DNA from: a virus
Taxonomy: Duplodnaviria > Heunggongvirae > Uroviricota > Caudoviricetes
Virus record (IMG/VR): IMGVR_UViG_2923307698_000008
Strand: one strand, 5' to 3'
Length of the DNA stretch: 49,166 bases
In this document: positions 36,001 to 39,000 of the stretch, in pieces
How the letters are laid out: each line of letters begins with the position of its first letter
Numbering within the stretch: the first letter of the stretch is position 1
Program-made: the position numbers

Positions 36001-39000
36001 TCGGTCAGAAAGACAGACGTCCCATAAGGACAACAACGGAAAAAGAGATTTTGCTTGATGCTATTTACCTCTGCACCATGAAGTTGCGCCAAAATCCCAG
36101 TGGTGATAACAGGAATTTGGTTGTTGGTGATTGGGGAAAGAAGTACGTTAGACTGTGGGTTAGTTCATTGACATGATAGTTACCTGCCTTCAATTTCCTA
36201 AGCAAGCGATGTAAACGATAATCAATATCAAATGTATTGACAGGTAAAATAATAACGATGTACCTTTGCTGATAACATATATCAGTCTTAAATCATAATG
36301 GAGGTAGATAAAATAACTAAACACACACAACAAATTTTTTATCAGTGACATAGCATATCTTAAGCATCCTTTAATGCTCATGGGGAGAACGCATGACTAA
36401 ACATATGGACATTCATTGTCAAACACGCATATTTAACTCAATTAACCATGACACCAAATATAAAATATGTATTTTTACTCCAAAAAACATTAAAAAAAAT
36501 AATGCAACTCTTTATATACTTGATGGGAATAGTGCCAACAATTACATTTCTGATATTCTGCCTGTTATTGATGCACTACCCAATCCACCAGTGTTAGTTA
36601 CACTTGGTTATGAATCTTGGAATAACCTAAGCATTCATCGCCGTGCTTACGATTATACTCCTGATGGTGAAAATGCTATTGTTGATAACTCTAAACCAGC
36701 ATGGATCTACTTTACTGGTGGAGGAAGCCAGTCTTTCCGAGAATTATTACTAACTCAGATCATGCCATGGGTTAGTACTATTGCTCCGAACAGTTCCAGA
36801 ATCGGTATATGGGGGCACTCGCTAGGTGCTATTTTTGTGCTTGATTGCTTAAAAAATAATTCATGCTTTAACTATTATTATATATCTGCACCATCACTTC
36901 TATGGCAGAATGAAAGAATCATCAAGATAATTAAAGATGATATGTCAGAATCAAAGCACACTAAAAGTATATGCTTGCTTAACGGAAATCTTAGCCTTGA
37001 TTACTCCGCATCTTTATATCCTGAAGCCATCAAAGCGGAATCTGTTTTGAGAAATATTTTGACAGAAAAATACAGTAATTTTTCTATTGTGCAATTTCCA
37101 GAGCTCAATCATCAGGAGACTTTCTCTGCTGCACTCTGGAATAGCATTATTCATTTCAGCATATAACAGAAAATATGTAATCACTTTATCAATCTAGCTA
37201 ACATAACTGATATCAATCCTAATGGGTCTTTGAACATATTAAAAGATAACTTCTCATTTGTACATTGTTGTGTTCTTAGACCCATTTCAAAAATACTATT
37301 TTTTAGATACTAATAATTACATCCATTTAGCTATCTTCTAAATACTCCTCTCAGTTTCTTCATTGGAGCTGATTCAACTCCGGCAATGCATACTAGGATC
37401 ATTTTATAAGCATACAAACAACATCCAGACTGTGAATTATTGCTATTCATTTTCTATGTATCTGCTCTTTTCCCATCCACTGAAACACCAGAATCCAAAG
37501 GTTTCATGTTATTTTCACTATTCCATCATTACTCCTGTGTAAAATATCAAAACTCGCTGCATCACTTCACTGTTACGGCACTCACTACAAATTATGTTCA
37601 ATTGCCTGTCATAGCGGCGTATTTCTCCGTCTGGTAATGACCAGATAAGGTCAGGATCAACCACAACCGGTTTCTTCAGTTTTGCCCTCGATAGTTTTTT
37701 GCGGGCGTTTTGCCAGTCCTTACGAGCCTGTTCAGATGGGAATAACCCGTAACCAGAGTTGTATACATCGCCACTGGCAACCAGCTCTCTGGCAAGAACG
37801 CTCATCAGATATCTTGTCGCACCTGTCTTGGCTTCCAGTTGCCGTAACGTCTCGCGCCCACTCCGGCGTACTAGCTCAACAACCTGCCCTTTAATTTTTT
37901 CCCGCTCTTCCTGTGTAAATACTTTTGCCATAAGCGCCTCCGGCAATCACTTTTCCGATACAACACGGCGGGAAGAATCAGTAATCTGTCGAACAATATC
38001 CCGGTGCTTGTTCAGCTCCCGCAGCGCGGCGCAGACTCGCTCCCACTTCTGAACATCACTTTTCGCCCTGCGCAGCGCCAGGTTTGCCCTGCGAAGGGAC
38101 GGAAAAATCAGCTCATCTGCTTGCGTTTCGGTAAACGATGGCAACGGCTGCACAATGTCCGCCACAGTTTCTGTTTTAATTTCTTCCTGTGTTGAGGCTT
38201 CCCGGACTGGTAACGCAGCACCTGCTGGCTGAGGAAAGGCCTTACCATCACTTTCCGTTACCAGCGCGGCTTTCGGCTCTGCTGGTAAATTATCGCCCGG
38301 CATGCAGTAACGAAATTTACCGTTCTGATTAACGCGTGCCAGCCGCCCCGTTGCGGTTACCACCGCCAGCGTGGAAGCAACCTTGCGAGTACTGACACCG
38401 AACTTACCCGCCAGTTCCTCACACGTTTTAGCCCCATCCTGACCGATAAACTCAATCATCATGTCTGCGGTAACTTTTTGTTCGACCTCCCCGGTCAGCA
38501 TATCCTGTGCTTCAGATTTTACTGGCCGCTCTTCGGTTACCCGGGATTCACCTTCGCCAGCCAGAAACCAGGTGTGACCAGTTTTATCAACGACGCCATT
38601 TATTTTGAGTTCCCACAGCTCGTTGACAGCCTCTTCACGACTGATTCCAAGGCGAGCTGCCACCACATGTGAAGAGGCTTTTTTCAGTGCTTTCAGTGCG
38701 TCAGATACGGTTTCCATTAAAATTTCCTCCGGACAAAATTACTTCACAACCCTCATATTGCTGACATTTGGACGCCAGCTATCCCAGTTAAACGTCACCC
38801 ATCGACCACCGTTCATGGTCATGCGGTCCATAATCCTCTCACCAAGAAGTGTACTCATTGCGGCATGATTCAGGTTTGTTAACATCCCGACACTGCACAG
38901 TGATGCTGTCCGGCGATCAATTATCTGGTGTAATACCACCTGCTCGTTTTTCGTCTCCCGCTGAACGCCTATTTCATCCAGGACCAGCAAATCAACACTG

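Follow-up and report, generated by a model that had tools for sequence, protein, structure and literature searches.

The fitness of enteric pathogens depends centrally on obtaining iron, and to our knowledge O157 and the other major serogroups of the Escherichia coli that make Shiga toxin (STEC) are usually described with only the core enterobactin system plus haem uptake. BesA (BES), the bacillibactin esterase of Bacillus (PDB 2qm0), is leaderless and cytoplasmic and frees iron from a ferric trilactone siderophore, and PfeE of Pseudomonas (PDB 6gi0–6gi5) is a periplasmic ferric-enterobactin esterase. In IroE, the esterase of the salmochelin locus (iroBCDEN; PDB 2gzr/2gzs), the oxyanion-hole arginine is said to carry the number Arg130 in the 2006 work of Larsen et al. 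and is reportedly anchored by Asp90. IroE is periplasmic, prefers the apo substrate and yields a linear trimer; linear trimers protect Salmonella against peroxide, and E. coli is said to be without an IroE homologue (PMC7403778). Passages of PMC10515146 and PMC2661963 describe catalysis by IroE through a Ser189–His287 dyad and not a triad, and a passage of PMC8933493, citing Larsen et al. 2006, has an arginine side chain from a helix contribute to the oxyanion hole. Here a stretch of 49,166 nt (IMG/VR record IMGVR_UViG_2923307698_000008, Caudoviricetes; the whole of it is called the window below) was analysed, which carries in the early region of a lambdoid prophage the gene of a leaderless, IroE-like serine esterase of 257 amino acids (aa) (36393..37166, + strand; ECs_1077 type; WP_000160655.1). 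This gene very probably encodes an active esterase of the IroE family and is carried as cargo; it adds an unstudied member, in an unusual carrier, to an enzyme family that is already known, and is not a new kind of system.

Sequence, fold and catalytic residues

The open reading frame (ORF) starts with ATG and encodes the motif IWGHSLGA with Ser143. Extension in the 5′ direction is blocked by an in-frame TAA 21 nt upstream of the ATG, and the ORF is not a chance frame, because it has full-length homology to IroE (E 4.4e-26) and a dN/dS of 0.15 between alleles. The best sequence match in the PDB was the enterobactin/salmochelin hydrolase IroE (2gzr; residues 8–253 aligned, about 28–30% identity over the full length), followed by Bacillus BES (1.3e-12), the Pseudomonas ferric-enterobactin esterase PfeE (1.4e-11) and then fungal siderophore esterases; all significant PDB sequence matches were siderophore esterases. 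A structural model was built with AlphaFold2 (AF2) on a 22-sequence alignment and had a single-domain alpha/beta-hydrolase fold with no lid domain (predicted local distance difference test, pLDDT, 88.9; predicted template modelling score, pTM, 0.91). When this model was compared with the PDB by Foldseek, the best 30 matches were all siderophore esterases (PfeE, EstA, IroE, BES, EstB and a Shewanella IroE-like protein) with template modelling (TM) scores of about 0.75–0.83, and feruloyl esterases and esterase D appeared among ranks 34–50 with TM scores of only 0.54–0.6. Against 2gzr the model gave TMq 0.79 and TMt 0.83 at a root mean square deviation of 2.8 Å.

In the alignment with 2gzr (chain index + 40 = IroE numbering) Asp90, Arg130, Ser189 and His287 of IroE correspond to D44, R84, S143 and H240 of the esterase, which are taken as the candidate catalytic residues. 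These four are among only 13 invariant columns of the 22-sequence alignment, which reaches down to 22% identity; R84 lies in a predicted helix (81–88), and the column of the usual catalytic acid is variable across homologues (N, E, D, R, S, A and others). Judged from the alignment and the model, the Ser-His dyad and the Arg/Asp oxyanion arrangement of IroE are thus retained. The first-pass annotation of this DNA had called the product an esterase-type alpha/beta hydrolase, which both the IroE sequence match and the fold matches bear out. It had also held that lack of a Ser-Asp-His triad on structural modelling would speak against the assignment; for the IroE family this is the wrong test, because IroE uses a Ser-His dyad and an Arg-based oxyanion hole. 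Its statement that the substrate was unknown can be refined, the class being now narrowed to the IroE/PfeE/BesA family of siderophore esterases.

Comparison with the characterised enzymes places the esterase closest to IroE, with which it shares the lidless single-domain fold, the serine of the GHSxG motif, the C-terminal histidine and the Arg/Asp pair that belongs to the atypical oxyanion hole. Unlike IroE, it has neither an N-terminal anchor or signal nor the PLGxNIADxGS segment and hence is probably cytoplasmic, and its gene, of 35% GC, lies in a prophage early region and not in an iro cluster. The esterase is therefore of the IroE type in structure and predicted mechanism; without an anchor and outside an iro locus, it does not qualify as an IroE orthologue. 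As far as homology goes, the statement that E. coli has no IroE homologue is untrue of these lysogens. BesA/BES and PfeE belong to the same fold family (Foldseek E about 1e-18, TM about 0.78–0.80; phmmer, in round figures, 1e-12 and 1e-11) and differ from the esterase in their hosts and genomic settings and by an identity of 20–22% in the fold alignment. Fes/IroD share with it the proposed compartment and substrate class and a distantly related catalytic domain (Foldseek E about 4e-10, TMq 0.68). Fes matches through this domain only (TMt 0.48), and, as a passage of PMC10515146 has it, contains an N-terminal lid domain and a Ser-His-Glu triad, whereas the esterase of 257 aa is a single domain with no lid and no conserved acid at that position.

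Absence of a leader peptide

The nearest homologues have about 290–330 aa and begin with a hydrophobic signal or anchor that is followed by the conserved PLGxNIADxGS segment. The esterase is without the N-terminal 45 aa or so of these relatives and begins at the first beta-strand of the catalytic domain (strand E9–15 in the AF2 model). Its maximal N-terminal hydropathy (12-aa window, first 50 residues) was 0.17, compared with a median of 2.24 in 136 full-length homologue representatives, 93 of which scored at least 2.0. A leader lost by frameshift was looked for upstream and none was found: every frame of that DNA contains stops, and nothing in it resembles a leader-coding segment. Elsewhere in the family there are other proteins of about 260 aa that lack a leader (e.g. 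P0083 and P0099), so this form has precedents, but when set against the IroE-like clade it is a derived one. Since neither signal nor anchor is present, the esterase is probably cytoplasmic.

Cargo status and origin

All genes around the esterase ORF lie on the minus strand; together they make up a lambdoid prophage's delayed-early operon, to which the esterase ORF is antisense. It lies in an AT-rich island of about 1.5 kb (GC 0.345 for 36006–37517 and 0.348 for the coding sequence (CDS), compared with 0.506 for the whole window and 0.51–0.52 for the flanking early genes), which occupies a variable cargo slot (36013..37539, delimited by homology breakpoints and GC) between the hok/sok module (35633..35957) and the 3′ end of the DUF977 gene. 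On the left the slot is flanked by the hok toxin ORF (35633..35845, −) and the sok antisense RNA region (35783–35957), and on the right by the DUF977 gene (37518..37946, −), the last gene of the replication block. A Shine-Dalgarno sequence, GGGGAG (36382..36387, +), was read from the sequence 5 nt 5′ of the ATG and is identical in all alleles.

In many prophages, including those of avian pathogenic E. coli (APEC) O18 and of O104:H4, the DUF977|hokD slot is filled by queH (epoxyqueuosine reductase) on the strand of the early operon. In pairwise alignment with the queH-carrying APEC O18 prophage, homology ended at 36012 and restarted at 37540. The queH gene of that prophage (L085:1894-2559) sits in the slot equivalent to window 36013–37539. 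Another lambdoid prophage, whose replication and immunity modules are not those of the window, has a 91% allele of the esterase gene at the same place between DUF977 and hokD. The DUF977|hokD junction is thus a recurrent cargo slot with alternative fillings. For the phage the esterase gene is not essential, as other prophages have queH in its stead; a benefit to the lysogen is probable.

An exhaustive HMMER scan of 1.84 billion representative proteins left a gap between the E. coli cluster, with identities of at least 87%, and the next matches at about 33% identity (best E 4.8e-27). In a scan of one genome per species the nearest relatives, with 29–32% identity, were from Acinetobacter, Pantoea and Klebsiella. 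The esterase gene was present in none of 50,697 deposited phage records, and, within the reach of the pattern used, an IroE-like gene was found in no other phage lineage among the 2.9 million contigs of IMG/VR. Its own neighbours are the prophage genes DUF977 and hok and not an iroBCDEN cluster. With phage morons and the cargo of lambdoid prophages in enterohaemorrhagic E. coli (EHEC), such as NanS-p esterases, Nle effectors and the Fur-regulated stx1, it shares the form of an AT-rich, self-contained gene in a variable slot; unlike them it is an early-region gene that runs antisense to the operon and is not downstream of Q or the tail fibres, and its enzyme class was seen in no other phage lineage of the collections just named.

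The first-pass annotation had described a 257-aa GHSLGA hydrolase antisense to the early genes, in a strongly AT-rich island with its own ribosome-binding site, and had interpreted it as horizontally acquired cargo. The position and strand of the ORF and of its neighbours, the island and the GGGGAG element all agree with this description, and the span given for the island (36001–37500) is close to the slot obtained by comparison with the related prophage. Acquisition as cargo is now borne out by base composition, by queH in the same slot, by the gap between 33 and 87% identity and by the count of 0 in 50,697 phage records.

Distribution, alleles and selection

The region is 100% identical to E. 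coli JNE132847. ECs_1077 of prophage Sp4, which is integrated beside yccA in O157:H7 Sakai, matches the esterase at 256 of 257 residues (99% identity). The protein is named 'alpha/beta hydrolase' in RefSeq (WP_000160655.1) and 'hypothetical protein' in the Sakai record, and falls into phrog_8493 (unknown function) of PHROGs; a literature search found no mention of ECs1077. A gene Z1341 ('unknown protein of CP-933M') was 2.5-fold up on host cells in a cluster that included exbB and chuU (PMC2654852), and it could not be established that Z1341 is the esterase gene.

Among 5426 complete E. coli genomes the CDS was found in 470 (about 9%), mostly STEC. It was at least 99% identical in 457 of these and 90–95% identical in the other 13, and in 466 a single place covered at least 80% of the CDS; a handful of copies are split by the insertion sequence (IS) IS1203, as in O26:H11 11368. 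A further 19 copies from prophages came from IMG/VR; they fall into three allele groups, at about 100%, 92.5% and 90.5% identity, and one copy (L103) is frameshifted. The survey of prophages that had been proposed from the initial inspection of the sequence was thereby carried out, and frame disruption in all relatives, named then as the finding that would count against the gene, was not observed: disrupted copies are rare, and of 10 distinct alleles 9 have an intact frame. Pairwise dN/dS was 0.15–0.25 in every comparison between the three allele groups, 45 of the 73 differences between the window and the allele of a pig strain fall at third codon positions, and all intact alleles retain D44, R84, S143 and H240. 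The low dN/dS, the third-position bias and the retention of the catalytic residues together show that the protein is under purifying selection. In two IMG/VR copies of the 92.5% group (L097 and L098) the upstream region is nearly identical to that of the window allele (36141–36392) and the CDS is 7.5% diverged, which points either to a strongly constrained promoter or to recombination inside the cassette.

Predicted expression signals

A consensus scan predicted a sigma-70 promoter (ATAACA, 16 nt, CATAAT; 36272..36299, +) upstream of the esterase gene. Two blocks of this region, 36250–36283 (33/33) and 36287–36312 (26/26), are invariant across all allele groups, while the 3′ non-coding part of the island is just 75% identical between alleles (dS about 0.33; neutral sites about 25% diverged), which argues for constraint on the promoter region. 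Of the independent promoter suggested in the first-pass annotation, a plausible sigma-70-like candidate in an invariant block can therefore be named, and its status is that of a prediction.

Upstream of the gene a putative Fur-box-like 19-mer, GTAAACGATAATCAATATC (36211..36229, +), matches the consensus at 15 of 19 positions, and the C alleles keep 14 of 19. A match of 15/19 was reached in 9 of 2000 shuffles of the upstream region, and the site is the second-best locus in the 49-kb window. A Fur-like 7-1-7 palindrome, TGATAACATATATCA (36270..36284, +; 3 mismatches), overlaps the predicted −35 hexamer and is identical in all alleles. When the strict Fur consensus was searched with up to 3 mismatches no site was found at the esterase gene; one emerges at 4 mismatches. 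These boxes suggest, as a hypothesis, iron control of the esterase gene by Fur.

At the 3′ end, 55 nt past the stop codon, a long hairpin followed by a U-rich stretch (37221..37286, +; centroid structure, z = −2.84) may act as a terminator; it was not called by a simple terminator scan. An Rfam search of the island found no family inside it, only the edge of sok and one chance match. An unannotated hydrophobic ORF of 63 aa (36190–36381, −) runs divergently from the esterase gene and crosses the predicted promoter region; it is probably an artefact of AT-rich sequence. RefSeq annotates there instead a short pseudogene fragment (about 36048–36131, −). The best Fur-box match of the window as a whole, CAAAATGATAATAATTATC (24538–24562; 3 mismatches, 0.01 expected), is located elsewhere; it precedes a YlcI/YnfO-family ORF (24706..24930, +) by about 150 nt and has a PerC/PchA-like regulator gene (25012..25326, −) in its vicinity.

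Proposed role and alternative explanations

We propose that the esterase gene is a lysogenic-conversion ('moron') gene in the variable slot of an Sp4-type lambdoid prophage. By homology, Ser143 would serve as nucleophile and His240 as base of a dyad, and Arg84, held by Asp44, would give the oxyanion hole. The enzyme would act in the cytoplasm, as it has no signal peptide or membrane anchor, and its likeliest substrate would be the tri-serine lactone backbone of catecholate siderophores, e.g. enterobactin. It might release iron from imported ferric enterobactin, like Fes and BesA, or might linearise freshly synthesised apo-enterobactin before export to the 2,3-dihydroxybenzoylserine (DHBS) trimer (DHBS)3 and smaller products, which would be the chemistry of IroE in another compartment; the two roles cannot be separated here. 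BesA provides a functional precedent for the proposed role, because it is leaderless, cytoplasmic and iron-releasing. Transcription would start from the gene's own promoter, counter to the early operon, and Fur may repress this promoter under iron-replete conditions. Taken as a whole (active esterase cargo, siderophore substrate and cytoplasmic action), this proposal is one towards which we lean slightly.

Several points weigh against it. The host already has Fes, and the need for a second cytoplasmic esterase is not obvious; activity, expression and location of the protein are judged here from sequence and model. As a single sequence, the esterase scored 17.2 bits (E 0.0044) against PF00756 ('Putative esterase'), under the gathering threshold of 22 bits, and it matched no NCBIfam model. 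The profile search advised at first inspection was thus sub-threshold, yet direct comparison found IroE at the E value given above, and since homologues at 30% identity pass the threshold (the Acinetobacter homologue L005 with 46.5 bits) the esterase is a divergent member of PF00756 by transitive homology. Identity to characterised siderophore esterases is just 21–30%, so substrate specificity may have shifted, and the neighbours of L005 are MutY, dienelactone hydrolase, RarA and an amino-acid ABC transporter, with no siderophore cluster. The promoter scan gave 9 sites where 7.0 were expected from shuffles and is not significant by itself, a cruder count found 2 Fur-like loci in about 7.5 kb of AT-rich window sequence, and the Fur-like boxes may have arisen by chance, because AT-rich DNA commonly yields partial matches.

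Low identity, the sub-threshold PF00756 score and the setting of L005, the nearest relative examined, would also suit an active alpha/beta-hydrolase esterase that acts on something other than a siderophore (for instance a lipid, an ester from the diet or the host, or a different small-molecule ester) and whose resemblance to IroE reflects ancestry only, the more so as the wider PF00756 fold takes in feruloyl esterases and esterase D. This explanation is unlikely but has a real minority chance, for the 30 top structural matches and every significant PDB sequence match are siderophore esterases, the unusual Arg/Asp oxyanion arrangement of IroE is kept and Fur-like boxes lie upstream. That the closest characterised relative, IroE, is periplasmic (PMC7403778) and that all nearest homologues have leaders could mean that the esterase reaches the periplasm or the outside non-classically or by phage lysis and is the true IroE equivalent for a host without the iroA locus; given the lack of a hydrophobic N-terminal segment, a first beta-strand that begins at residue 9 and the existence of the leaderless family members P0083 and P0099, we regard this as improbable. 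A selected effect mainly in cis, in which the AT-rich antisense island between the replication genes and Q, acting through H-NS nucleation or transcriptional interference, would damp early-operon read-through and thereby tame the prophage, with the enzyme incidental, would fit an island of 34.5% GC placed on the opposite strand in the direct path from pR to Q, and Sp4-type prophages of this set that also bear IS insertions. It is very improbable in view of dN/dS values and invariant catalytic residues that indicate selection on the protein itself, and of a non-coding 3′ part of the island that drifts near the neutral rate.

Readings of the gene as a decaying pseudogene, as an effector of the type III secretion system (T3SS) or as a component of a defence system were rejected; a PADLOC search returned no match. 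Prophage type and base composition do resemble those of nle genes, an NleG gene is present in the same window, and many AT-rich cargo genes of EHEC lambdoid prophages encode secreted effectors; with only about 8 residues before the folded domain, too few for a secretion signal and a chaperone-binding region, a location in the early region and not in the effector locus beyond the tail fibres, and no resemblance to a known effector family, a T3SS effector is scarcely credible. Equally little credence is given to a functionless remnant of a truncated iroE-like gene, to which the missing N-terminal 45 aa or so, the copies split by IS1203 and the frameshifted L103 might point: purifying selection, intact frames in 9 of 10 alleles, at least 80% of the CDS in one place in 466 of 470 genomes, the conserved ribosome-binding site and start codon and a truncation exactly at the domain boundary all contradict decay.

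If the proposed siderophore-esterase role is correct, STEC would possess, in a conserved and selected homologue of the salmochelin-locus esterase borne by a prophage, an accessory component of their iron system that has gone unrecognised; it would also be a rare case of siderophore-processing chemistry carried by a phage. The homology is easily found once sought, and the gene is widespread in major STEC lineages, under selection and possibly iron-regulated; it also shares its prophage with the virulence regulators pchA and psrA. More tentatively, and here we are inclined to doubt, a temperate phage might give STEC without the iroA locus an iron-regulated cytoplasmic IroE-type enzyme that redirects enterobactin metabolism. 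Linear DHBS oligomers might then guard against oxidative stress or alter recognition by lipocalin-2, or the enzyme might open a second route of iron release; it would be the first phage-borne conversion gene for siderophore processing and would tie prophage carriage to gut iron physiology. Should the protein be an ordinary esterase, the finding shrinks to an annotation upgrade from 'hypothetical' to IroE-like hydrolase.

Other features of the prophage

Beyond the slot, the early operon contains on the minus strand the genes for a DUF1627 protein (37947..38717), a DnaC-like protein (38739..39485) and an O-like protein (39492..40718) on one side, and for a DUF968/NinG-like protein (34136..35185), RusA (33752..34123) and Q (33391..33771) on the other. 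An IS3-family element (15190–16470; ORFs 15192..15653 and 15575..16465) with an ALIL frameshift pseudoknot (15533–15649) and a local reversal of GC skew lies amid the morphogenesis genes; the prophage is probably defective. An effector locus is located at the prophage end (window 1–3340); besides an NleG-family gene (1769..2377, −) it has two ORFs, 1..1209 (+) and 2394..3338 (+), for which Pfam gave no match. The best matches of this segment in E. coli are annotated as EspV, NleH, NleG and tail-fibre genes.

A second esterase cargo gene (28469–30319, −), located downstream of three tRNA genes (30812–31058) and of an STnc100/PasD-like small RNA (sRNA; 30542–30732), encodes a DUF1737-SASA-DUF6645 protein of 616 aa that is of the NanS-p sialate O-acetylesterase type. 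Two further minus-strand genes at 31087–31800 and 32421–33245 comprise an AraC-type regulator at the position of Sakai ECs1087 and a CAAX/CPBP intramembrane protease gene between Q and the tRNAs; ECs1087 has been named psrA, a T3SS regulator of Sp4 (PMC13502914). A DicF sRNA gene (44717–44768, +; 77 bits) was found in the immunity-proximal left operon beside dicB-like genes.

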